Part shown: positions 2,985 to 31,657 of the stretch, piece after piece | Numbering within the stretch: position 1 is the stretch's first letter | Layout: each line of letters opens with the position of its first letter | Assembly: GCA_026625185.1 (NCBI GenBank) | Contig: CP113000.1 | Coordinates: 210,001 to 242,000 of the forward strand | DNA from: Thermodesulfobacteriota bacterium | GTDB taxonomy: Bacteria; Desulfobacterota; WTBG01; JAGOGO01 | Direction of reading: 5' to 3' | Length of the DNA: 32,000 nt | Notes under the pieces: generated by a model | Told to the model about the DNA's origin: nothing | Seen by the model: the letters and a program-made list of their open reading frames with translations, nothing else | The model's database searches: none | Program-made: the position numbers and the translations under genes

Positions 2985-5543
2985 ATGACCAAGACAAAAT
3001 TCTTTCATAACATCGGCCCGCTTGTAGGGGTACTCCTTTTTACGGTAGCCCTCTGGGTTCTGCATAGCGAACTCAAGACCTACCATTTTCACGACATTCT
3101 TAAGCGCACTCGTGAACTTCCCGTCCACCAGGTTGGGTTTGCTTTTTTGCTCACGGTGCTCAGTTATCTTATTATGACGGGATACGACACGTTGGCCTTA
3201 CGGTACATCCAAAAACCACTTCCCTACAGCAAAACCGCTTTCGCTTCTTTTGTCGGTTATTCCTTTAGCAATAACATCGGGCTTTCTATGTTGGCCGGAG
3301 GTTCGGTCCGGTTTCGTCTTTATTCGGCATGGGGACTTTCAGTGATTGATATTACCAAGGTAGTTCTTTTTTGTACCGCCACCCTCTGGCTCGGATTCTT
3401 AACCCTTTCCGGCGTAATTTTTCTTATTGAACCACTTGCCATTCCCCGGGCGCTTCACCTTCCTTTTTCCTCCGTTCAGACCCTGGGAGTGATTGCCCTG
3501 GTTCCGGTAGTGTGCTTCTTTTTTGTCAGCCTTTTACGAAAGCGATCGCTCACAATTCGTGACTGGGAGTTCACCATCCCTTCCTTTAAGCTTTTAAGCG
3601 CTCAAATAACGGTTGCGTTGTTTGATTGGTTTATAGCGGGGTGCGCACTCTATGTTCTTTTGCCGGTTTCACCGAATCTTTCATTTCTGGGAGTGCTCGG
3701 AGTATTTCTTTTGGGACAACTTGCGGGCCTGGCAAGTCAAATTCCCGGTGGGCTCGGGGTTTTTGAGTCCGTAACCATTCTCCTGTTATCTCCAATGCTT
3801 ACGGCTTCTGAAATCCTCAGTTCCCTTTTAGTTTATCGCGGCATGTACTATATCCTTCCGCTTCTCATTGCCGCACTTATGCTTGGTGTCCAGGAGGTGC
3901 TTCAAAAAAAGGAAGGAGTGAAGCGGATCGCCCGTTTTTTCGGCCAATGGGTTTCGGAATTACTCCCACAGGTATTTGCTTTTACGACATTTGTAGGCGG
4001 GACGATTCTTCTTTTCTCAGGAGCAACCCCTGGTGTAGGCTGGCGTTTTTCCTGGCTTAAAGACCTCCTTCCCTTACCTGTCGTAGAAGTCTCTCACTTT
4101 CTTGGGAGTATAATCGGTATCGGCCTTCTGCTTCTTGCTCGAGGCTTGCAGCGCCGTATTGATGCCGCTTATATTTTAAGTTCGATTCTGTTAGGAGCGG
4201 GAATCGTCATTTCCATTCTTAAAGGGTTTGATTATGAAGAGGCGCTTATTCTTACCATCATGCTTGGAGCTCTTTTTCCCTGTCATCGTTATTTTTATCG
4301 GAAGGCCTCTCTCTTTAATGAAAGTTTTACTCCGAGGTGGACGGCGGCTATTGTCCTAGTACTGATTTGTTCCGTCGCTTTGGTTCTTTTTTCGTACAAG
4401 CATGTGGACTATTCTCATGACCTTTGGTGGAGTTTTACTCTTTACGGCCATGCTTCCCGCTCACTCAGGGCTATTGTTGGAGCGATCGGAGTCGGGCTCT
4501 TCCTTTCGATGGCACGACTTCTCCGTCCCGCTCAAGTGAAATTCACATCTCCCGGAATAGATGATCCGGGAGTGGTAAAGAGTATTGTTCAACAGTCATC
4601 TCAGACCTATGCTTTTCTCGCCCTGCTCGGTGATAAGAGTTTTCTTTTCAATGAAAAACGGAATGCCTTTATTATGTACAACACCTCCGGAAGAAGCTGG
4701 GTCACCATGGGAGACCCGATCGGCCCGGAGGAGGAAAGTCGTGAACTCATCTGGCGTTTCCGAGAGATGTGCGACCGTTACGATGGATGGACCGTTTTTT
4801 ATGAAGTAGGGACCAAAAACATTCCTCTTTACCTTGATCTCGGGCTTGCCCTCCTTAAAATCGGCGAGGAGGGGCGGGTTTGGCTGCCGGATTTTTCTTT
4901 AGAAGGAAATGCCCGCAAAGGATTCCGCCATATTCTTAATAAACTCGAAAAAGGGGGTTATGGGTTTGAGATTGTTTTACCGGAAAACATTCCGTCTCTT
5001 CTTCCGGAGTTACGGAATATTTCCGATGCCTGGCTCAAGGAGAAAAACACGCGAGAAAAAGGGTTTTCGCTCGGTTTTTTTGAAGAAGAATATCTGAAAC
5101 AATTTCCTACCGCCCTCGTACGGAAGGACAAGAAAATAATTGCTTTTGTCAACATCTGGCAGGGAGCAGAACAGGAAGAGCTTTCTCTGGACCTGATGCG
5201 TCATTTCCCTGATGCTCCTAATGGAATTATGGACTATCTTTTTCTCCATCTTATGCTTTGGGGCAAAGAAGCGGGATATAAATGGTTTAGTCTGGGAATG
5301 ACCCCATTTGCAGGTATGGAAGACCACGCCCTTGCCCCGCTCTGGAACCGGCTGGGTGCTTTTATTTTTACCTACGGTGAACATTTTTATAACTTCCAGG
5401 GTTTGAGGCAATACAAACAAAAGTTTGACCCTCAGTGGGAGCCTAAATATATAGCTTCTCCCGGCGGCCTTGCTTTGCCAGGCATTATTACGAATATTGC
5501 CTCGCTGATTTCCGGAGGTGTGAAAGGAGTGATTGCGAAATGA
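2985..5543 (+). CDS. mprF: MprF-type aminoacyl(lysyl)-phosphatidylglycerol synthase/flippase
   Basis: About 850-aa protein with a long polytopic N-terminal domain and a cytoplasmic C-terminal DUF2156/LPG-synthase-like domain (FLALLGDKSFLF...YNFQGLRQYKQKFDPQWEPKYIA). ATG at 2985 (MTKTKFF) is preferred over the GTG at 2937 that opens the ORF. Confidence 0.85.
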   Translation: MTKTKFFHNIGPLVGVLLFTVALWVLHSELKTYHFHDILKRTRELPVHQVGFAFLLTVLSYLIMTGYDTLALRYIQKPLPYSKTAFASFVGYSFSNNIGLSMLAGGSVRFRLYSAWGLSVIDITKVVLFCTATLWLGFLTLSGVIFLIEPLAIPRALHLPFSSVQTLGVIALVPVVCFFFVSLLRKRSLTIRDWEFTIPSFKLLSAQITVALFDWFIAGCALYVLLPVSPNLSFLGVLGVFLLGQLAGLASQIPGGLGVFESVTILLLSPMLTASEILSSLLVYRGMYYILPLLIAALMLGVQEVLQKKEGVKRIARFFGQWVSELLPQVFAFTTFVGGTILLFSGATPGVGWRFSWLKDLLPLPVVEVSHFLGSIIGIGLLLLARGLQRRIDAAYILSSILLGAGIVISILKGFDYEEALILTIMLGALFPCHRYFYRKASLFNESFTPRWTAAIVLVLICSVALVLFSYKHVDYSHDLWWSFTLYGHASRSLRAIVGAIGVGLFLSMARLLRPAQVKFTSPGIDDPGVVKSIVQQSSQTYAFLALLGDKSFLFNEKRNAFIMYNTSGRSWVTMGDPIGPEEESRELIWRFREMCDRYDGWTVFYEVGTKNIPLYLDLGLALLKIGEEGRVWLPDFSLEGNARKGFRHILNKLEKGGYGFEIVLPENIPSLLPELRNISDAWLKEKNTREKGFSLGFFEEEYLKQFPTALVRKDKKIIAFVNIWQGAEQEELSLDLMRHFPDAPNGIMDYLFLHLMLWGKEAGYKWFSLGMTPFAGMEDHALAPLWNRLGAFIFTYGEHFYNFQGLRQYKQKFDPQWEPKYIASPGGLALPGIITNIASLISGGVKGVIAK

Positions 5544-9020: not shown

Positions 9021-9163
9021 TTTACCCCGTTAGAAATGCCCGGCCTGCCCTGTTAGGTGTTAAATATCTAACGGGTTAAAGAAGCACTGGGTAACCTTAA
9101 AGATTCTTACACTTTTTTACGGGTGGAAAATGTCCGTGGGGAAAACCTTCTAACGGGGTTTAC
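9021..9163 (+). repeat. Nested-palindrome repeat element, copy E1 (longest, 143 nt)
   Basis: Outer inverted repeat CCCCGTTAGAA...TTCTAACGGGG, inner inverted repeat CCCTGTTAG-N11-CTAACGGG, and core AAGAAGCACTGGGTAA. Flanked by TTTAC on both sides. Homologous to 15747-15860, 11684-11791 (-) and 30911-30957. Confidence 0.85.
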
Positions 9164-9203: not shown

Positions 9204-9701
9204 TTAATCAGTTTCCTTAATCACTTGACCGTGGGAAGTAAAAGAAACACCTTGTTGGCCCTTGGTGCCAATCATTATAGCCTCGATCAAAGGCGCGGTG
9301 ACATTACTTTTTGATTCCCAGGTTACAATAAAACTAGCGCCTGAACCTCCACTCTTATCGGATTCCTGAATAATAACCCGCGTTGAGGTCAGAGGATTAA
9401 GCTTTAAATGATTCTGCAGGTAACCTTTAAGAAGTTTACCCTCGGAGCCATAATAGTTTATTGATGTTATGGTAATTGGAGAATCAGGATCGGTATTTCT
9501 TATACTGAGCGTTGCCGTTAGGTCAAGGGGATGTTCCTCCCGGTCACCATGATAAATATGAGAATAAATCGGCACATAAACCATCTGACCCCGGCATCGT
9601 TTGACTTCCGCTAAGGTGTAATGTGTGATGAGGAGCGCATTAATAACAAAGACAAACCCTAAAAGAAATAAACACTTTTTTAAGTAATTTTTTGGTATCA
9701 T
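9204..9701 (-). CDS. DUF3124 domain protein with N-terminal membrane anchor/signal
   Basis: Matches my memory of the DUF3124 signature: VYVPIYSHIYHGD, LSIRNTD, SGGSGASFIV.W, and a hydrophobic N-terminus. RBS GGAG lies before the ATG. Confidence 0.65.
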   Translation of the reverse strand: MIPKNYLKKCLFLLGFVFVINALLITHYTLAEVKRCRGQMVYVPIYSHIYHGDREEHPLDLTATLSIRNTDPDSPITITSINYYGSEGKLLKGYLQNHLKLNPLTSTRVIIQESDKSGGSGASFIVTWESKSNVTAPLIEAIMIGTKGQQGVSFTSHGQVIKETD

Positions 9702-9984: not shown

Positions 9985-12900
9985 TTATTTGCCGGCGAGG
10001 TATTGTTTGAGAAACCGGGCGGTGTACGAGGTATGAGTGTGCTTTAGAATTTCCTGGGGAGCGCCGGTTGCCAAGACGTAGCCGCCTTGGTCCCCTCCTT
10101 CCGGTCCCAGGTCAATGATATGGTCTGCGGCACTAATGATGTCGAGGTTATGTTCGATAATGGCAACCGTATTTCCTTTATCCACCAGCCCGTGAAGTAC
10201 GCTTAAGAGTTTTTCAATATCCGCGAAGTGAAGACCGGTGGTTGGTTCATCGAGGATATACAATGTCTTCCCCTGGGCGGAACGGGAGAATTCATAAGCG
10301 AGTTTAATCCGCTGGGCCTCTCCGCCGGAAAGGGTGGGGCTGGGCTGGCCCAGGGTGAGGTAGTCAAGACCCATGTCGGTAATAATCTTTAAAGGCCTGG
10401 CGATAGCGGGAATGGCGGAAAAGAAATTCGCGGCTTCCTTCATGGTCAGGTTGAGTACTTCGGAAATTGTTTTGCCTTTGTAGTTAATGTGTAATGTCTC
10501 TTCATTAAACCGCGTTCCTCCGCAGACCTCACAGTCCACATACACATCCGGGAGAAAGCTCATCTCGATCCTCTTTTTTCCTTGCCCGGCGCAGGCTTCG
10601 CATCGCCCTCCTTTCACGTTAAAGGAAAACCGTCCGGGATTATATCCCCGCATCCGGGCATCGGGGATAAACGAAAAAAGCCTCCGGATGTCATCATAGA
10701 AACCCACGTAGGTTGCGGGGGTTGAGCGGGGAGTACGGCCAATAGGGGAGTGGTCAACATCGAGCACCCGGTCAAGATGTTCCCACCCGGATAAAGCAGA
10801 GAATGTCGAATTGTTTTGTTTTAGACCCAGAAGGTGATTTTTAACACCCCCTAAGATGACTCCTTTTAAGAGAGTTGACTTTCCTGCGCCGGAGACACCG
10901 GTAACGCAGGTTAAGGTTCCGAGGGGAAGGGCGATCTCGATATTTTTGAGGTTATGTTCCCGAGCGCCTTTAACCATAAGCCATGTATCCGGCGAGCGTT
11001 TTCGCGAGGTAATGATTCGGCGGTTGTGATTTTTCAGGAATTGTCCGGTAATTGAGTGAGGAGTATTTAACAGTGTTTTGAGTGTTCCGGAGGCGATTAC
11101 TTCACCTCCCTGAATTCCTCCTCCGGTGCCCAAGTCAACAATAAAGTCTCCGTGCCGGATGGTCACTTCATCATGTTCCACCACCACCAGACTATTACCC
11201 AAGTTTTTTAGCTCTTTCAAAGTTTGAACCAGCATCCGGTTATCGCGGGGGTGAAGCCCGATGGTCGGCTCATCCAGAATATAACAGGCCCCGCGCAGGT
11301 TGGAGCCTAACTGAGCGGCTAAACGGATCCTTTGAGACTCACCTCCGGAAAGGCTGTCTCCGCGGCGATTGAGGGTGAGATAGGAAAGACCAACTTTGAG
11401 AAGAAAGGCAAGGCGGGTGTTAATCTCCCGGACAATGGCGCCGCCGATTGCCTGTTCGTGAGAAGAAAAGGAGATGGCGCGAAAAAATTTCTCCGCTTGA
11501 GCAACCGAAAGCGACGTCACATCCCAGATCCCCAAACCCTTTACCTTGACGGCCAGCGCATTAGCCTTAAGTCTTTTTCCTTTGCAGGCCGGGCATTCAA
11601 CCTCGTTAACGTCAGACGGCCTATCGGTTGCTTCGAGGAACTGATCATAAAAGAATTCTTGCGAGTAATGATCAGGCTCGGCTATAAACCCCGTTAGAAG
11701 ACTTTCAGACGGAGCATGTACCCGGTGCTTCTTCACCCCGTTGGATTTTGATATCAAACGGGGCAAACGGAGACTTTCTAACGGGATAAAACCTATTCCC
11801 GCGCAGCGGGGGCAGGCGCCGTGTTTGCTGTTAAAAGAAAATAAGCGCGGGTCAAGCGGTTCAAAGCTCTGAAGACAGCGGGGGCAAAACAACGTATCGC
11901 TGTACCGCTTTTGTTTGCCCTCAGCACTAACAGCAAAAAAAGTACCCTCCCCCTGTTGGAGGCTTTCTCGAACGATCTCATCCAAGGTAATTTTTCTCCC
12001 GGAAGAGACATTCTGCCGAGCAATGAGGAGGTCAACTTCATGCTCCTGGTAACGGCTTAAAGCCGGCGGCTTGCTGAGATCAATGATTTTTCCATCAATA
12101 CGGGCTTGGGAATAGCCCTTTTTCAGGGCCTGGGTGAAAATATCTTTATGGAACCCTTTTCTTCCGAAAACTTTGGGGGCAAAGAAAGAAACAAGTTCTT
12201 CCCGAAACGATGCCTGAATATCTTGCGCGATTTGTTCCACGTTCTGAAGCGTGATCGGCTGATCGCATGAAGGGCAGTACTGAGTGCCGAGCTTACTGTA
12301 GAGAAGGCGGAGGAAATGGTAGATTTCCGTCACGGTGGCAACAGTCGACCGTTTTCCTTCCCGGTACATCCGCTGTTCGATCGCCACGGTGGGAGGGATT
12401 CCGGCGACCAAGTCAACATTGGGTTTATCCATGATCTTAAGATACTGCCGGACATAAGGGGTAAGGCTTTCGAGATAGCGGCGCTGGCCTTCCGCGAACA
12501 GGATATCAAAAGCAAGCGTGGATTTGCCTGAGCCGCTCATTCCGGTGATGACCGTCATTTTCCCCCGGGGGATGGTTACCGTGATGTTCTTGAGGTTGTG
12601 TTCCCGCGCGCCCATAACCCGGATTTCCTCGGCAGAAGGTTTACCCTTTTTTTTAACGACCGCACGAGGTTTTTTCTCGTGGATGTTTGAGGCGCCCGGT
12701 TTGAGAATCTCTTTCAGGAACTTTCCGGTCCGGGATTGAGGACACGCCGCAACTTCTTCAGGAGTACCTGCGGCCACGAGAAAGCCTCCGGCCTCACCTC
12801 CTTCGGGTCCCAGGTCAATGATATAATCAGCGTATTTAATGACCTCGAGGTTATGTTCCACGATAACGACGGAGTTTCCCTTTGCCACTAAACTCTGGAG

Positions 12901-15495
12901 AGTCGTGAGGAGCTTGGCGATGTCATCACAGTGAAGGCCAATGGTCGGTTCATCAAAGATAAACAGGATATTTTTGGACTGCGGAGCGCTGATCTGTTTC
13001 GCTAATTTAAGCCGCTGGGCTTCTCCGCCGGAGAGGGTGTTGAGAGGCTGACCTATCTTGATGTTGCCCAAACCGACATCAGTGAGGACTTTTAAATGAG
13101 GGCTTACCTTGGGGAGGACTTTGAAAAACTCCAATGCCTCATCCACTGTGAGGCTCAAAACCTCTGCGAGATTTTTTTTCTGAAAAGTGACTTCCAAGAT
13201 TTCCGGCTTGAACCTTTTTCCCTGACAGTCAGTACAGGTGATGTAGATATCGGCTAAAAACTGCATTTCGGTTTTCTCATACCCGTCTCCTTTACAGGTC
13301 TCACATCTTCCGCCCTCGACATTAAAGGAAAACGATGAGCTCGTGTATCCCCGCTCCTGAGCGAGCGGAGTGCGTGCAAAAAGAGCGCGGATGGCATCAA
13401 ACGCTTTAAGATAGGTCAGGGGGTTTGAGCGCGGGGTTCCGCTGACGGTTTTTTGGTTAACCAGCATGACCTCGTGAATCAGCTCAGTTCCTTTGATCGC
13501 GGCAAACGCGCCCGGTTTTTCCTCAAACACTCCTTTTTCTCGCTTTATGCCACGGTAAAGAATCTCTTCAATCAGGGTGCTTTTTCCTGAACCCGAAACA
13601 CCGGTTACGCACACCACCATTCCCAGAGGAATTTCGAGGTCGAGGTTTTTGAGATTGTGCTCGCCTGCTCCGAAGATCCGGATCGTGTTGGTTTTTCGAG
13701 GGCTTCTCCTTTTTTGGGGGAGAGAAACTTTCAGCGCTCCGGAGAGGTATCGCCCGGTAAGCGAGTTCTTAGCTCGTGTTATTCCCTGCGCTTTTCCGAA
13801 ATAGACTAATTCTCCTCCCTTCTCCCCGGCGCCCGGACCGAGGTCGAGGATGTAGTCGCTGTTCTTGATGATTTCCGGATCATGCTCCACCACCAGCACG
13901 GTGTTATTATTTTTTTTAATCTGATGGAGGATATTCATTAAGCGGAGGTTGTCGCGGGGGTGAAGCCCGATGCTCGGTTCATCGAGGATGTAAAGGGTGT
14001 TGGCAAGCGAGGAGCCTAAGATAGTGGTGAGATTCAGCCGTTCCACTTCACCGCCCGAAAGGGTGCGCGACTGGCGGTCTAAGGAAAGGTACCCAAGCCC
14101 GACATCAATCAGGTAAAGGAGACGGTTTTTGATTTCCTGAAGAATGGTCTCGCTGACCTTGTCATCTTTGGCCTGAAGGCGGGTAAAAAAATCATGAGCC
14201 TGAGCAACACTCATCCGGTAAAGCTCGCCGATATTTTTTTCTTCCACCTTCCAGAAGAGCGCTTCTTTTTTGAATCGTGTGCCATGGCAGGCCGGGCACT
14301 CACGGTATCTCCGGTAGCGGGAAAGGAAGACCCGGACGTGCATCTTGTATTTTTTAGTCTCCAGCCATTCAAAAAAGCCCCGGATTCCGTAATAGTCGGA
14401 AGTTCCATTGATAATGTCCTGCTGATCTTTTTCCTTTAAATCTTTAAACGGGATAGTAGTCGGGATTTTCCGGGCGCGGCAAAACTCCATCAGGTCGTCA
14501 AACTCGATTCGTCCGGGCTCGGGCTTCCAGGACTTGATGGCTCCTTCTCGTAATGATTTGGTCTTATCCGGGATAACCAGTTCGATGTCAAAGTCAATGA
14601 TTCTTCCAAACCCGCGGCAGTTTTCGCACGCCCCTAACGGGCTGTTAAAAGAAAAAAGATTGGGGACCGGATACTGGTAATTGAGGTCACAATAGGGGCA
14701 GTGAAACTCGGCGCTGAATTTTAAAACATCCTGTCCCGGAAAAACAAGCGAGCAATGCCCTCCGCCAAACTTAAGCGCTCCTTCGAGCGAATCAATGATC
14801 CGCTTTTTTGCCCCTGTTTTCATGGTCAGCCCGTCCATCACCATGAGAACTTCTTTTTTGGCTTTCTTGAGGACCTGGCTGAGCGGCAGAATTTCGTTGT
14901 TATAATAAGCGCGTGAAAACCCCATGCCTGAAAGATAGGTTTCTACGTCATTCCGGTTAAGTCCATTAAATTTAATGGGGAACGCGATAATAAATTCTGT
15001 TCCTTCCCCCCGGGTCAGGAGACTCTCCCAGATGGTGAACGGTGTATCCCGTTCTACTTCTCTTCCGCAGGCAGGACAATAAAGAAGCGCTATTTTAGCG
15101 AAAAGCAGTTTACAGAAGTCAGTGATCTCGGTCATGGTGCCCACAGTGGAGCGGGACGTTTTTACCAGGTTTTTGCCGTCAATGGCGATGGCCGGCGGAA
15201 TTCCTTCGATTTTATCCACCCGGGGTTTATCCATCCGGTCCATAAACTGGCGGGCATAAGGGGAAAAGGTCTCCACATACCTTCTTTGCCCTTCAGCGTA
15301 CAGGGTATCGAAAGCGAGGGATGATTTTCCCGAGCCGCTTACCCCGGTAATGGCGATGATCTGAAAGAGGGGGATTTCAAGGTTCAGATTTTTTAAATTA
15401 TTCTGCTTGGCGCCGATAATCCGGATTGAGTCGTAAGCGTTCATTTTTTTGAGGTACTGCTGGGTGTGATTTTTAATCTCTTTCTTTCTTGACAA
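9985..15495 (-). CDS. Tandem-fused double UvrA-like ABC ATPase (two complete UvrA units, four nucleotide-binding modules)
   Basis: Four Walker A motifs (GVSGSGKSS, GVSGSGKST, GMSGSGKST, GVSGAGKST) and four LSGGE signatures. CxxC zinc modules appear in UvrA order in both halves. The two units are joined by a basic linker (KKPRAVVKKKGKPSAEE). The ORF opens with TTG at 15495. ATG at 15444 (MNAYDSIRIIGAKQNNLKN) resembles a canonical UvrA N-terminus and may be the real start. Confidence 0.85.
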   Translation of the reverse strand: MSRKKEIKNHTQQYLKKMNAYDSIRIIGAKQNNLKNLNLEIPLFQIIAITGVSGSGKSSLAFDTLYAEGQRRYVETFSPYARQFMDRMDKPRVDKIEGIPPAIAIDGKNLVKTSRSTVGTMTEITDFCKLLFAKIALLYCPACGREVERDTPFTIWESLLTRGEGTEFIIAFPIKFNGLNRNDVETYLSGMGFSRAYYNNEILPLSQVLKKAKKEVLMVMDGLTMKTGAKKRIIDSLEGALKFGGGHCSLVFPGQDVLKFSAEFHCPYCDLNYQYPVPNLFSFNSPLGACENCRGFGRIIDFDIELVIPDKTKSLREGAIKSWKPEPGRIEFDDLMEFCRARKIPTTIPFKDLKEKDQQDIINGTSDYYGIRGFFEWLETKKYKMHVRVFLSRYRRYRECPACHGTRFKKEALFWKVEEKNIGELYRMSVAQAHDFFTRLQAKDDKVSETILQEIKNRLLYLIDVGLGYLSLDRQSRTLSGGEVERLNLTTILGSSLANTLYILDEPSIGLHPRDNLRLMNILHQIKKNNNTVLVVEHDPEIIKNSDYILDLGPGAGEKGGELVYFGKAQGITRAKNSLTGRYLSGALKVSLPQKRRSPRKTNTIRIFGAGEHNLKNLDLEIPLGMVVCVTGVSGSGKSTLIEEILYRGIKREKGVFEEKPGAFAAIKGTELIHEVMLVNQKTVSGTPRSNPLTYLKAFDAIRALFARTPLAQERGYTSSSFSFNVEGGRCETCKGDGYEKTEMQFLADIYITCTDCQGKRFKPEILEVTFQKKNLAEVLSLTVDEALEFFKVLPKVSPHLKVLTDVGLGNIKIGQPLNTLSGGEAQRLKLAKQISAPQSKNILFIFDEPTIGLHCDDIAKLLTTLQSLVAKGNSVVIVEHNLEVIKYADYIIDLGPEGGEAGGFLVAAGTPEEVAACPQSRTGKFLKEILKPGASNIHEKKPRAVVKKKGKPSAEEIRVMGAREHNLKNITVTIPRGKMTVITGMSGSGKSTLAFDILFAEGQRRYLESLTPYVRQYLKIMDKPNVDLVAGIPPTVAIEQRMYREGKRSTVATVTEIYHFLRLLYSKLGTQYCPSCDQPITLQNVEQIAQDIQASFREELVSFFAPKVFGRKGFHKDIFTQALKKGYSQARIDGKIIDLSKPPALSRYQEHEVDLLIARQNVSSGRKITLDEIVRESLQQGEGTFFAVSAEGKQKRYSDTLFCPRCLQSFEPLDPRLFSFNSKHGACPRCAGIGFIPLESLRLPRLISKSNGVKKHRVHAPSESLLTGFIAEPDHYSQEFFYDQFLEATDRPSDVNEVECPACKGKRLKANALAVKVKGLGIWDVTSLSVAQAEKFFRAISFSSHEQAIGGAIVREINTRLAFLLKVGLSYLTLNRRGDSLSGGESQRIRLAAQLGSNLRGACYILDEPTIGLHPRDNRMLVQTLKELKNLGNSLVVVEHDEVTIRHGDFIVDLGTGGGIQGGEVIASGTLKTLLNTPHSITGQFLKNHNRRIITSRKRSPDTWLMVKGAREHNLKNIEIALPLGTLTCVTGVSGAGKSTLLKGVILGGVKNHLLGLKQNNSTFSALSGWEHLDRVLDVDHSPIGRTPRSTPATYVGFYDDIRRLFSFIPDARMRGYNPGRFSFNVKGGRCEACAGQGKKRIEMSFLPDVYVDCEVCGGTRFNEETLHINYKGKTISEVLNLTMKEAANFFSAIPAIARPLKIITDMGLDYLTLGQPSPTLSGGEAQRIKLAYEFSRSAQGKTLYILDEPTTGLHFADIEKLLSVLHGLVDKGNTVAIIEHNLDIISAADHIIDLGPEGGDQGGYVLATGAPQEILKHTHTSYTARFLKQYLAGK
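11684..11791 (-). repeat. Nested-palindrome repeat element, copy E4, embedded in frame in the double-UvrA CDS
   Basis: The - strand reads TTTTATCCCGTTAGAAAG...GCCCCGTTTGATATCAAAATCCAACGGGGTGAAGAAGCACCGGGTA...TCTTCTAACGGGGTTTAT. This is collinear with copy E2, including an identical 12-mer GTGAAGAAGCAC. Length is 108 nt, encoding FIPLESLRLPRLISKSNGVKKHRVHAPSESLLTGFI. Confidence 0.85.
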
Positions 15496-15746: not shown

Positions 15747-15860
15747 TTTTACCCTGTTAGAAAGACCAGCTTGCCCTGTTAGATATAAAATATCTAACAA
15801 AGTGAAGAAGCACGGGGTAATGGTAAATACACCGGTTGAAATTCTTCTAACGGAGTTTAC
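15747..15860 (+). repeat. Nested-palindrome repeat element, copy E2 (114 nt)
   Basis: TTTTACCCTGTTAGAAAG...GCCCTGTTAGATATAAAATATCTAACAAAGTGAAGAAGCACGGGGTAA...TTCTTCTAACGGAGTTTAC. About 80% identical to E1 over the left 70 nt. Confidence 0.85.
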
Positions 15861-15949: not shown

Positions 15950-16372
15950 ATGAAACGAGATAACAAGATAGATGAATTATTCGAAGAGTTTGGCTCTTCA
16001 ATGTCGGTAAATTTGATTGTCCAAGGCCCCCGAGAAGTTCTTGACCTCAGAGGTCAGCTTCTTAAAGGGTGTTTGCAATGCCAAAAGCGGATCAGTGAAT
16101 TTATGCTTTCCCAGGATATTGCCTGCGCTCTTACCGCCGGTCACTATGAGATAAAATCCGATGCCGCAAAATTTCTTCAAAAAATCTGCAACAATGCTAT
16201 TTCCCTTGCTAAGGCAAGCGAGAAAACCGACGGTCTTGTCCGGGCTTCCGGGGATACGGCCATGGTGCTGAAAACCTTAAAAGAGGTTGACCCGAAAAAA
16301 TTCCTCGAAGTTTTGTGTATCCTGTTAAAATACGAAAAGGAGAAAAAGGGTGACAAAGCTCATACCGTATAA
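15950..16372 (+). CDS. Hypothetical protein (140 aa), no recognisable domain
   Basis: RBS GGAG lies before the ATG. The 3' end overlaps the next ORF by 23 nt. Probably helical. Confidence 0.55.
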   Translation: MKRDNKIDELFEEFGSSMSVNLIVQGPREVLDLRGQLLKGCLQCQKRISEFMLSQDIACALTAGHYEIKSDAAKFLQKICNNAISLAKASEKTDGLVRASGDTAMVLKTLKEVDPKKFLEVLCILLKYEKEKKGDKAHTV

Positions 16373-19927: not shown

Positions 19928-19995
19928 TGCACCCCAGATGAAAATTGAATAGTTTGTCTTTCACCAAAACAGCGAATATTATTCATGGAGGAAAT

Positions 19996-20511
19996 ATGAA
20001 TATAAAATACAAAATGTTGTTGATGGTTTTTTTGTTTCCTTTGGTTTTGTGCGCTGCTGGAGAGTCACAGGAGAATGCTCCCCAAGTCACGTCTGAGGTA
20101 ACGTCACAGGAAATTGTTCCCCAAGTCATGCCTGAGGTAAAGCCACAGCAGAATGTTCCTCAAGTCACGCCTGAGGCGCTTGCAATTGCCGGTGCGGTGC
20201 AGTGGCTTAAAGTCACCGATGCTGAGAATTATGACAAAGCCTGGATGTATGCATCCGAGTATCTTAAAAACGCGGTTCCCAAAGATGTTTTTAAAGAGAG
20301 GCTTCAAGGGGTGAGAAGCCCATTAGGCAGCATGAAAAAACGAGTTATGGATGCAGCCCAATATGCCACCAGTCTTCCGGGATCTCCGGATGGAGAGTAT
20401 GTGGTTATAAAATTTAAAACCGAATTTGAAAAAAAAACCAACGCGGTTGAGACGCTAATTTCTAAGAAAGAAGACAGTCAGTGGAAGATAGCCGGATATT
20501 ACATCAAGTAG
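19996..20511 (+). CDS. Secreted DUF4019 family protein, paralogue 1 (with internal 13-aa x3 repeat)
   Basis: RBS GGAGG 4 nt before the ATG at 19996 (the ORF track starts at 19945). Signal peptide. DUF4019-like core: WLK..D..NYDKAW.YAS.YLK...LGSMKKR...LPGSPDGEYVVIKF.T.F...WKIAGYYI. Confidence 0.65.
   Translation: MNIKYKMLLMVFLFPLVLCAAGESQENAPQVTSEVTSQEIVPQVMPEVKPQQNVPQVTPEALAIAGAVQWLKVTDAENYDKAWMYASEYLKNAVPKDVFKERLQGVRSPLGSMKKRVMDAAQYATSLPGSPDGEYVVIKFKTEFEKKTNAVETLISKKEDSQWKIAGYYIK
20068..20184 (+). repeat. In-frame tandem repeat, 3 x 39 nt (QENAPQVTSEVTS / QEIVPQVMPEVKP / QQNVPQVTPEALA)
   Basis: Three consecutive 39-nt units read directly. Only one unit equivalent is present in the paralogue at 20643-21080. 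Confidence 0.85.
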
Positions 20512-20560
20512 CTATCATTCAATTTTCATCAATTAAAACCTTTTGACTCATCAAGTAATA

Positions 20561-20613
20561 GGGGAACCAGACTGGAACCCCACGTGCCCCCTCTTTGGAA
20601 AAGAGGGGGGGGG
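20561..20613 (+). repeat. GC-rich hairpin repeat R1 (GGGGAACCAGACTGGAACCCC plus CCCCCTCTT-TGGAA-AAGAGGGGG)
   Basis: 9-bp stem at 20587-20595/20601-20609. Lies 50-100 nt after the stop at 20511. Related to 21128-21190 and 22007-22040. Confidence 0.7.
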
Positions 20614-20642
20614 ATTGAGAAATATTACTTCCCGGATGGAAT

Positions 20643-21080
20643 ATGAAGATAGGGTATAGGGTTTTGTTAATCTTTTTTGTGTTTCCTTTTTTATTGTTTG
20701 CCGCGGAAGGGTCAGAGCAGAATATAAAAGGAAAGCCGGAGGTTCTTGCGATTGCCAGCGCTCAGCAGTGGCTTGAAATCATTGATGCCGGCGAGTATGC
20801 CGAGGGCTGGGAGAGTGCATCCGAATATTTGAAGAACACGGTTCCCGAGGATGCTTTTAAACAGAAGCTTAAAGGGGTGAGAAAGCCGTTAGGTAAAATG
20901 AAGAAACGAACTTTTGTTTCGGCGCAATATACCGCCCGTTTTCCCGCCGGGTCGGATAAAGAATATGTGGTAATCCAATTTAGGACTGAGTTTGAAAACA
21001 AAGCGTACGCAATGGAGAACCTAACCGCTCAGAAAGAAGAAGACGGGCAGTGGAGGATAGCGGGATATTATATAAATTAG
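20643..21080 (+). CDS. Secreted DUF4019 family protein, paralogue 2
   Basis: Signal peptide. Collinear with paralogue 1 (AQQWLEIIDAGEYAEGWESASEYLKN...WRIAGYYIN). Confidence 0.65.
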   Translation: MKIGYRVLLIFFVFPFLLFAAEGSEQNIKGKPEVLAIASAQQWLEIIDAGEYAEGWESASEYLKNTVPEDAFKQKLKGVRKPLGKMKKRTFVSAQYTARFPAGSDKEYVVIQFRTEFENKAYAMENLTAQKEEDGQWRIAGYYIN

Positions 21081-27227: not shown

Positions 27228-27294
27228 AGAAGTTTATGTTTTTGCTGAAACAATGTTCTTTTCTGGAAGTTTTTAAAACGTCTCTGTTGTTTTA

Positions 27295-27337
27295 ATTTTA
27301 TCAGTAACTATTCTGGTATTGCCTTGACATAGATCAA
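27295..27337 (-). promoter_or_regulatory. Second FNR/CRP-type box TTGAC-ATAG-ATCAA plus -10 TAAAAT: promoter candidate for the SiR-like gene, overlapping the regulator's own upstream region
   Basis: Box at 27324-27337. TAAAAT on the - strand at 27300-27295, with a 23-nt gap. On the + strand the same TTGACA could serve as a -35 for the Crp/Fnr gene that starts at 27361. Confidence 0.5.
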
Positions 27338-30854: not shown

Positions 30855-30910
30855 GTTTTTAGTACATTATTATTTATTGCTTTTAATAAATTTTTATAGT
30901 TTTTACTTCC

Positions 30911-30957
30911 TTACTCCGTTAGAAATGCCCCGTATGAGAGCCTTCTAACAAGGTTTA
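30911..30957 (+). repeat. Nested-palindrome repeat element, copy E3 (47-nt mini version: termini only)
   Basis: TTACTCCGTTAGAAATGCCCCG...CCTTCTAACAAGGTTTA matches the two ends of E1 with the interior missing. Lies 57 nt upstream of the htrA start. Confidence 0.7.
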
Positions 30958-31056
30958 ATATAAAAAAATTTTCCTTTTATGACAAGAAAATTCCCACTCT
31001 CTTGGAAGGGATCATCTTTTTATGTGAACGATGAGGTTAACTAAAAAGAAGTAAAA

Positions 31057-31490: not shown

Positions 31491-31657
31491 GAATATAAAG
31501 TTTTTCTTTTTGTTTAGTAAGGGGATTAACAGAACTAATAACCATATAACGTTATAAGGAGGGACGCGGCATTCATCAAGTCTTATTGGGGAATACAAAG
31601 TTTTTTTATTTGTTAAGGGGATTAACAAAACTAATAGCCATATAACTTTATAAGGAG
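31491..31657 (+). repeat. Two copies (71 and 67 nt) of a direct repeat in the leader of the last ORF, each ending in TTATAAGGAG
   Basis: Copy A is 31491-31561 and copy B is 31591-31657. They share AAAGTTTTT..TT.GTT...AAGGGGATTAACA.AACTAATA.CCATATAAC.TTATAAGGAG. A third TTATAAGGAG lies at 31483-31492. Copy A contains the perfect palindrome TATAACGTTATA. Confidence 0.75.

Follow-up and report, generated by a model that had tools for sequence, protein, structure and literature searches.

INTRODUCTION

[quoted passage not shown] The Rickettsia palindromic elements (RPEs) are palindromic repeats that can lie in frame within genes and be translated as an extra segment in a tolerant region of the protein (PMC10969869). 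Repetitive extragenic palindromic (REP) sequences and REPINs carry a conserved tetranucleotide at the foot of a hairpin; hairpin and tag together form the unit that is recognized, and the TnpA-REP enzyme cuts on either side, on one strand (PMC8266576). Insertion sequences (ISs) of the IS200/IS605 group use the targets TTAC (IS608) or TTTAT and TTCAT (Geobacillus) and have gene-less derivatives, the PATEs (10.1101/2023.03.14.532601). Here, we compare with these systems a family of hairpin repeats noticed as four copies in a 32,000-nt stretch of a Thermodesulfobacteriota genome (GCA_026625185.1, contig CP113000.1, positions 210,001 to 242,000 of the forward strand). The whole stretch is called the window below, and coordinates given without a locus name refer to it.

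The initial annotation of the window had described the repeats as MITE- or REP-like, a reading which copy number, an empty site, and short forms supported on every point tested. The repeats are a large undescribed noncoding hairpin family in uncultured Thermodesulfobacteriota. They add a new family to a well-known kind of selfish DNA in bacteria and stand out by a target that is unusually strict and used in one direction only, and we consider it highly probable that they are a non-autonomous mobile element.

RESULTS

Four copies of a hairpin element in the window

All four copies claimed by the initial annotation are present, and their coordinates agree with ours within 1 nt. The right-end 15-mer, with 3 or fewer mismatches, matched the window 8 times against 1.14 expected, a number reached in 0 of 100 shuffles, and the internal box GTGAAGAAGCACSGGGTA matched it 3 times against 0.01 expected. 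The canonical full-length copy (9021-9163, plus strand; nhmmer E = 1e-38 over the full model) is 143 nt long. It starts with TTTA (9021-9024) and the left arm CCCCGTTAGAA (9025-9035), continues with hairpin 1 (about 9047-9076), the conserved box AAGAAGCACTGGGTA (9079-9093), and a degenerate hairpin 2 (about 9113-9146), and ends with the right arm TTCTAACGGGG (9148-9158) and TTTAC (9159-9163). The canonical element of the family has the same order: TTTA, left arm, spacer, hairpin 1 (GCCCTGTTAGATAT-CAA-ATATCTAACAGGG), box (GAAGAAGCACGGGGTAA), hairpin 2 (CTTTTTCACACGGGG-TAAATG-CCCCGTGTGAAAG), right arm, and TTTA(C). Its interior is modular, the modules being hairpin 1, a GAAGAAGCAC box, and hairpin 2.

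Two further copies belong to a shorter class, class B. One (113 nt; 15748-15860, plus strand) occupies the divergent intergenic region between uvrA (minus strand) and an ORF at 15950 (plus strand), and the other (107 nt; 11684-11790, minus strand), flanked by TTTAT on both sides, is intragenic, in the second UvrA unit described below. The fourth copy, of about 48 nt (30910-30958, plus strand), lies upstream of htrA (minus strand) and consists of the two termini; it reads CTTA-CTCCGTTAGAA-ATGCCCCGTATGAGAGCC-TTCTAACAAGG-TTTAA, and its arms are decayed. Sizes of 143, 114, 108, and 47 nt had been given originally, of which the first was reproduced and the others were remeasured as 113, 107, and about 48 nt. 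The features proposed at that time, namely, an 11-bp outer inverted repeat, an inner hairpin, and direct TTTAY flanks, were confirmed. The conserved direct repeat is the 4-nt TTTA adjoining the 11-bp arms; the fifth base of the right TTTA is mostly C, in a minority of copies T, and occasionally G or A. For every full copy, a single long hairpin is predicted, with the outer arms paired at its base (z = -3.5 to -5).

An independent Logan assembly and the JGI assembly showed 100% identity across 12.9 kb holding two of the copies. A scan of the window against Rfam at gathering score gave 0 matches, and a permissive scan of the 143-nt copy (E up to 10) gave chance-level matches only. No tRNA or tmRNA genes were found in the window.

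A large family with conserved termini

Related genomes were searched with one restricted right-end pattern, which required TTTA after the right arm, in a species-representative genome collection, and copies in the fetched loci were then called with an iterated nhmmer profile. More than 109 genome stretches matched the pattern. Among the matches listed, 32 stretches came from the metagenome-assembled genome (MAG) DATEXU01 (Thermodesulfobacteriota SMAG_U8427) and 24 from CAVTQE01, making 56 in these two related MAGs, and others came from several MAGs labeled "Deltaproteobacteria." The fetched loci hold about 90 copies, and the related MAGs contain dozens per genome. The copies range from 26 to about 190 nt, and most have stops in all six frames. 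Comparison of the consensus with plasmid and phage collections by blastn gave 0 matches, and a scan of viral contigs gave a single match, probably due to chance. A literature search for the terminal sequences returned only unrelated primer matches, and one for TTTAC as an IS target returned nothing.

In other MAGs, interiors of 2 to 130 nt that are unrelated to those above are bounded by the same termini, TTTA-CCCCGTTAGAA ... TTCTAACGGGG-TTTA. The depositors' labels of these MAGs are Nitrospiraceae, Thermodesulfovibrionia, Nitrospinota, Omnitrophica, Pirellulales, and Saccharibacteria, and GC contents range from 37% to 54%. Since the left ends of these elements lay outside the search pattern, we regard them as real relatives. 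Across 57 copies, conservation is 93% or higher at every position of the arms, and no compensatory changes were seen there. Mean column conservation is 96 to 98% in the termini versus 89% in the interior, the value for the right end being inflated by its partial preselection by the search pattern. Over whole copies, paralogs are 83 to 86% identical to each other, and hairpin 1 shows a few compensatory base pairs.

Two observations on the arrangement of copies are added here. At locus L077 (5785-6392), three family copies lie in one orientation within 610 nt, about 110 nt apart, so copies can cluster locally. At L110 (5540-5625), hairpin 1 of a copy is interrupted by a different repeat, TGTCATTCCGGGCTTGACCCGGAATCC...GGATTCCCGCCTTCGCGGGAATGACA, a palindrome of the type ATTCC-N-GGAAT, which is also present at L081 (about 5015-5040) and has the look of a further REP-like family of these MAGs.

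Short forms arise by internal deletion

The 143-nt copy is not an outlier in size. It is the canonical form, one of 19 copies of 138 to 150 nt, and the shorter classes are deletions between internal direct repeats. Deletion between CACGGGGTAAA repeats yields class B, of about 107 nt (the window copies at 15748 and 11684), and deletion between AAATGCCCCG repeats yields the two-termini form of about 47 nt (the window copy at 30910 and copies at L087, L070, L050, and L082). The original interpretation of the shortest window copy as an internal-deletion form was thus borne out, the same short form recurring at other loci. At one orthologous site, whose flanks share about 96% identity, a copy of 135 nt in CAVTQE corresponds to the two-termini form in DATEXU, from which it follows that short forms can arise in situ. 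Other orthologous pairs differ in length as well (110 versus 131 nt and 108 versus 146 nt).

A subfamily of about 173 nt, found at nine loci, is the canonical form with an insert in the loop of hairpin 2. The insert consists of a 26-nt perfect palindrome (halves TCCCGTTAGAAAA and TTTTCTAACGGGA) plus TAAA; on the other strand, TTTA is followed by the palindrome, a second TTTA, and then CCCC. Solo mini-palindromes are present at L011, L077, and L058.

An in-frame insertion in uvrA and its empty site

The minus-strand copy at 11684-11790 turned out to lie inside the ORF of a fused double UvrA (9985-15495, minus strand; 1836 codons from the first TTG, called product of 1819 aa), in frame, a placement that the initial annotation had missed when describing the gene context of the copies. 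The copy is in the sense orientation and free of stops, and the distance from its first to its second TTTAT is 102 nt, or 34 codons. In the second UvrA unit, its translation is (F I) PLESLRLPRLISKSNGVKKHRVHAPSESLLTGFI. Where the window protein reads CPRCAGIGFI[PLES...LLTGFI]AEPDHY, the best homolog, P0001 (75% amino acid identity in the search), reads CPRCAGMGFIAESDHY. The ortholog coding for P0001, at L112, has a clean empty site at the DNA level, of the kind that the initial annotation had proposed to look for in relatives: GGGTTTTAT is followed directly by TGCCGAG (the site can also be written GGTTTTAT followed by TGCC). The filled site in the window reads GGTTTTAT, then the insert CCCGTTAGAA...TTCTAACGGGGTTTAT, and then AGCCGAG, the insert running CCCG...GGGGTTTAT.

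Since L112 has a single TTTAT and the window has two, one TTTAT existed before the insertion, and the insert amounts to a 98-nt core plus 4 nt. Whether TTTAY is a target duplication or part of the element had been left undecided originally; the single TTTAT at the empty site identifies it as a duplicated or adjacent target that is not borne by the element at both ends. The second TTTA may be a true staggered-cut duplication or, alternatively, may represent the target plus an element-borne motif. Precise excision from uvrA would give the allele GGTTTTATAGCC.

According to our reading of the alignment, the uvrA copy departs from the class consensus at the places where the consensus gives in-frame TAG and TAA: GTTAG is changed to GTTTG, and ATCTAAC has a 1-nt deletion and a T-to-C change. 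The insertion falls between the two CxxC halves of the zinc module of the second unit, where the linker in aligned homologs varies from a few residues to more than 100. In an AlphaFold2 model, query residues 311-360, which hold the insertion, have pLDDT values of 44 to 48, and the flanking zinc-module residues have values above 90. The insertion is in a tolerant part of UvrA, and its translation is predicted to give a 34-aa loop insertion. As for the host protein, the ORF comprises two complete UvrA units, the second of which is nearly devoid of the insertion domain between the zinc-module halves.

Other insertions and occupancy differences

Two short members at other loci are likewise in frame and stop free. 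One is in alaS of an Omnitrophica-labeled MAG (L107, 7647-7693; 47 + 4 = 51 nt, 17 codons), and the other is in a gene resembling that of a thiamine pyrophosphate (TPP)-dependent 2-oxoacid:ferredoxin oxidoreductase (L057, 6080-6147; 68 + 4 = 72 nt, 24 codons). Core length plus 4 is a multiple of 3 in all three in-frame coding insertions (98 + 4, 47 + 4, and 68 + 4), and three copies among about 100 span ORFs. The uvrA copy is a clean natural example of a selfish repeat absorbed into a protein, with parallels in alaS and the TPP-dependent oxidoreductase gene.

An unoccupied intergenic site was found at 27243-27311, where a copy of 141 nt is present at the syntenic locus L054 (DATEXU01, about 87% nucleotide identity). 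Because of divergence of the intergenic sequence, this is a between-species difference in occupancy and not a clean empty site. The initial annotation had reasoned that a lack of further copies and of presence/absence polymorphism would speak against mobility; copies proved plentiful, and sites are polymorphic between species.

Mobilization: a single-strand transposase or a classical MITE

We regard it as evenly poised between right and wrong that, taken as a whole, the family is a mobile element moved in trans by an HUH/Y1 mechanism. The mechanistic component, movement by an HUH/Y1 single-strand transposase of the IS200/IS605 or REP-associated tyrosine transposase (RAYT) type encoded elsewhere, has by our estimate slightly less than an even chance of being correct. 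The Y1 enzyme, acting in trans, would recognize the folded hairpin on one strand and would cleave on the 3' side of TTTA(Y), both in the left flank (the target) and at the element's own right end, after which the element would be joined to the 3' side of another TTTA(Y) on a single strand of DNA. Independently of the enzyme, insertion takes place at a pre-existing 5'-TTTA(Y) and adds the core and one more TTTA. An excised circle of the element would have a junction reading GGGGTTTA-CCCCGTTAGAA.

The polarity of the flanks, the extreme specificity for TTTA, and the size of the smallest unit speak for a strand-specific, probably single-strand mechanism, and the published IS200/IS605 and REP systems outlined in the Introduction accord with it. 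In the 11 copies that were free of search bias (the 4 in the window and 7 secondary ones), the flank, taken in relation to the orientation of the interior, is TTTA-like in 11 and TAAA in 0, with a P value of about 0.001 under random orientation; this strict polarity had been missed in the initial annotation. An earlier orientation statistic (44/44, then 50/56) was rejected as biased, the search pattern itself having demanded a TTTA behind the right arm, and only the 11 unbiased copies are counted. TTTA is found at the flank in most copies, although its frequency in the background is 0.8%. Because DDE transpososomes have two-fold symmetry and typically prefer symmetric targets, either polarity would be expected of them. 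An asymmetric TTTA target with a fixed polarity, together with a minimal unit of 26 nt, favors a single-strand HUH/Y1 enzyme over a classical DDE MITE. A 26-nt unit is REP-sized and implausibly short for the synapsis of two double-stranded ends.

A possible lead to such an enzyme came from Uhrbacteria MAGs, in which we observed a small Y1/HUH-like family of 8 members of 170 to 206 aa (L044 200-900, L116, L119-L123, and L125-L129). These proteins have the HUH motif NHYHF and the tyrosine motif RGY[VI]IGNPLKHGEV and give a weak match to Pfam Y1_Tnp (E = 7.7e-4). At most of these loci, the Y1-like genes are bordered by arrays of REPs with covarying stems (AACC-stem-TAAA-stem'-GTTAGAA plus AGCCAC-TTTA-GTGGCGT), an apparent REPtron-like system in candidate-phyla-radiation bacteria. 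The arrays share TAAA-N4-GTTAGAA (TTCTAAC-N4-TTTA on the other strand) with the window family, a hint that hairpins of the GTTAGAA type can be Y1 substrates. The Y1-like gene at L044, seemingly bounded by TTTAT before CCCC...GGGGTTTAT, was considered as an autonomous copy of the element and was downgraded, its flanks being REP arrays with variable stems. In the Uhrbacteria arrays, only GTTAGAA and, in most variants, the TAAA loop are conserved. A tblastn search of the fetched loci with Y1 proteins gave no further match.

A number of observations weigh against the HUH/Y1 proposal or against current mobility. No transposase with these ends was found in the window, in the 10 kb on each side of it, or, over about 0.8 Mb of loci, in the intervals between paired elements, which agrees with and extends the initial annotation, in which none had been seen. 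The 15-nt identity at L044 concerns one stem variant that the search pattern itself selected, so that the link to the window family could be due to chance. Whereas the left- and right-end hairpins of IS608 resemble each other, hairpins 1 and 2 have no sequence relationship. The orientation of copies relative to the local GC skew, in 8-kb loci too noisy to be decisive, was 27 versus 25. The flanks showed no excess complementarity (z = -0.5), so that pre-existing hairpin loops are not a general target. Between CAVTQE and DATEXU (93 to 97% identity), 8 of 8 comparable sites are occupied in both, so most copies predate the split of the two; with paralogs as divergent as those described above, the family may now be largely inactive, as judged from these comparisons.

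The remaining counterevidence is that which best fits a classical MITE, i.e., an internally deleted derivative of a DDE IS moved by double-stranded cut-and-paste, with a 4- to 5-bp duplication at a preferred TTTA(Y). A direct repeat flanking perfect 11-bp terminal inverted repeats is what textbooks describe for a DDE MITE and is atypical of IS200/IS605 ends; the elements are, moreover, small, numerous, and devoid of ORFs and have deletion derivatives. The rare flank variants match on both sides (TTTAT/TTTAT in uvrA and TTTG/TTTG at L011), as predicted for a true duplication, and the terminal sequence is conserved beyond what mere pairing requires. However, the asymmetric TTTA keeps its direction in all of the unbiased copies, unlike the typically symmetric DDE preferences; the specificity for it goes far beyond usual target preferences; and the 26-nt perfect palindrome behaves as an inserted unit. 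A parent is also missing: no autonomous IS with these termini was found in the window with 10 kb on each side or in about 0.8 Mb of loci. Weighing both sides, we think it rather unlikely, though a serious competitor, that the repeats are classical MITEs.

An IS4-like insertion sequence is present at L001 (4030-5365), about 4.6 to 6 kb past the right end of the window. It encodes a 389-aa protein with DUF4372 and DDE_Tnp_1, has 20-bp inverted repeats (CCCACTAGTGTCCGGTTAAG), and adjoins DUF3854 and HTH_17 genes that suggest an integrated element. As a parent of the family, this transposase was rejected, its inverted repeats being unrelated to those of the repeats.

Genomic context and the remaining alternatives

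The copies are overwhelmingly intergenic. In tandem-gene contexts, the TTTA strand runs antisense to the genes in 21 cases and in the sense direction in 6, and the typical position is about 36 to 41 nt after the stop codon of the upstream gene; the 9021 copy fits, lying 41 nt past the stop of a DUF3124 gene (9204-9701, minus strand) and antisense to it. Such a distribution is what would be seen if the repeats were retained by the host as REP-like structural or regulatory elements (3'-end stabilizers, terminators, or binding sites for a protein or the nucleoid) and if their placement reflected function. The stable predicted folds, some compensatory changes in hairpin 1, and the conservation of insertion sites between the two related MAGs agree with this as well. 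On the other side stand the clean insertion polymorphism in a coding gene, copies nested within copies, and interiors that decay freely; in addition, no T run follows the hairpin, and Rfam has no match. The genes between paired copies are unrelated housekeeping genes, with no transposase among them, and thus the repeats are not an operator for one regulon; an operator or regulatory site as the primary explanation was rejected on account of the coding insertion, the nesting, and these unrelated neighbors. Function and mobility are not mutually exclusive, so that a host role would be secondary at most, and we judge it improbable as the explanation of the family.

Slightly less probable still is another sequence-directed recombinase acting on a short asymmetric core, such as a DEDD enzyme of the IS110/IS1111 type, a serine or tyrosine recombinase, or an HUH Y2 rolling-circle enzyme. 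Some recombinase families of this kind leave a repeated core at both junctions, and a short asymmetric target repeated on both sides in a fixed orientation accords with that. Nevertheless, IS110-type targets are longer than TTTA(Y), the flanks conserve nothing beyond TTTA(Y), and no such gene was found near any copy. Chance resemblance or an assembly artifact, for which only the frequent position of the repeats at MAG contig ends could speak, is virtually discounted by the shuffle controls, the identity of the two assemblies over 12.9 kb, and the dozens of copies elsewhere. The contig ends do have a practical side: MAG assemblies are broken by the family, and masking or annotating it is advisable.

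Other repeats in the window

Two more repeats were observed in the window. Two adjacent paralogous DUF4019 genes (19945-21080) form a 300-nt repeat with 71% identity, and the first of them contains a 39-nt tandem repeat in 3 copies (20054-20176). Near the window end, a 55-nt intergenic direct repeat (31507-31561 and 31603-31657; 89% identity, 96-nt spacing) ends in TAAGGAG in each copy.

DISCUSSION

The repeats described here could, as a tentative proposal that we hold with less than even confidence, form a previously unrecognized class of TTTA-tagged hairpin transposons that are moved, in the form of single-stranded hairpins, by an HUH/Y1 enzyme, whose target motif is also their end motif, whose minimal unit is a 26-nt perfect palindrome, and which bridge REP/RAYT systems and the IS200/IS605 PATEs. 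If this is true, a single conserved family of enzymes that spreads horizontally would be implied by the identical 15-nt termini in MAGs labeled Thermodesulfobacteriota, Nitrospirota, Omnitrophota, Planctomycetota, and Patescibacteria. It would also mean that hairpin repeats that look like MITEs can be HUH single-strand substrates, and the boundary between MITEs, REPs, and PATEs would blur.

With the known bacterial MITEs, the family has no sequence similarity. It also differs from them in that no parent IS was found in the loci searched, in its fixed, polar, asymmetric TTTA, and in a minimal unit of 26 nt. The duplications of MITEs are variable or symmetric, as with the TA of Correia. The in-frame copies in uvrA, alaS, and the TPP-dependent oxidoreductase gene resemble RPEs, but coding insertions make up about 3 of 100 copies here and a large share of RPEs, and there is no sequence relationship between the two.

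Like REPs, the repeats are high-copy extragenic hairpins with a tetranucleotide at the foot, and their minimal forms, of 26 to 40 nt, are REP-sized. The tag, however, is TTTA rather than GTAG or CGTC, and it is repeated directly on both sides, whereas REPIN doublets have it inverted. The fetched DNA yielded no RAYT gene with these elements at its sides.

The ends of IS200/IS605 elements are, to our knowledge, not terminal inverted repeats. In the present family, one end pairs with the other and the two internal hairpins are dissimilar, whereas the left and right subterminal hairpins of IS200/IS605 are alike; no cognate tnpA or tnpB was found in the fetched DNA, and the noisy local GC skew showed no replication-strand bias. 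What the family has in common with IS200/IS605 is an AT-rich tetra- or pentanucleotide target on one strand, a related right-end motif, a strict polarity, hairpin ends, and non-autonomous copies.

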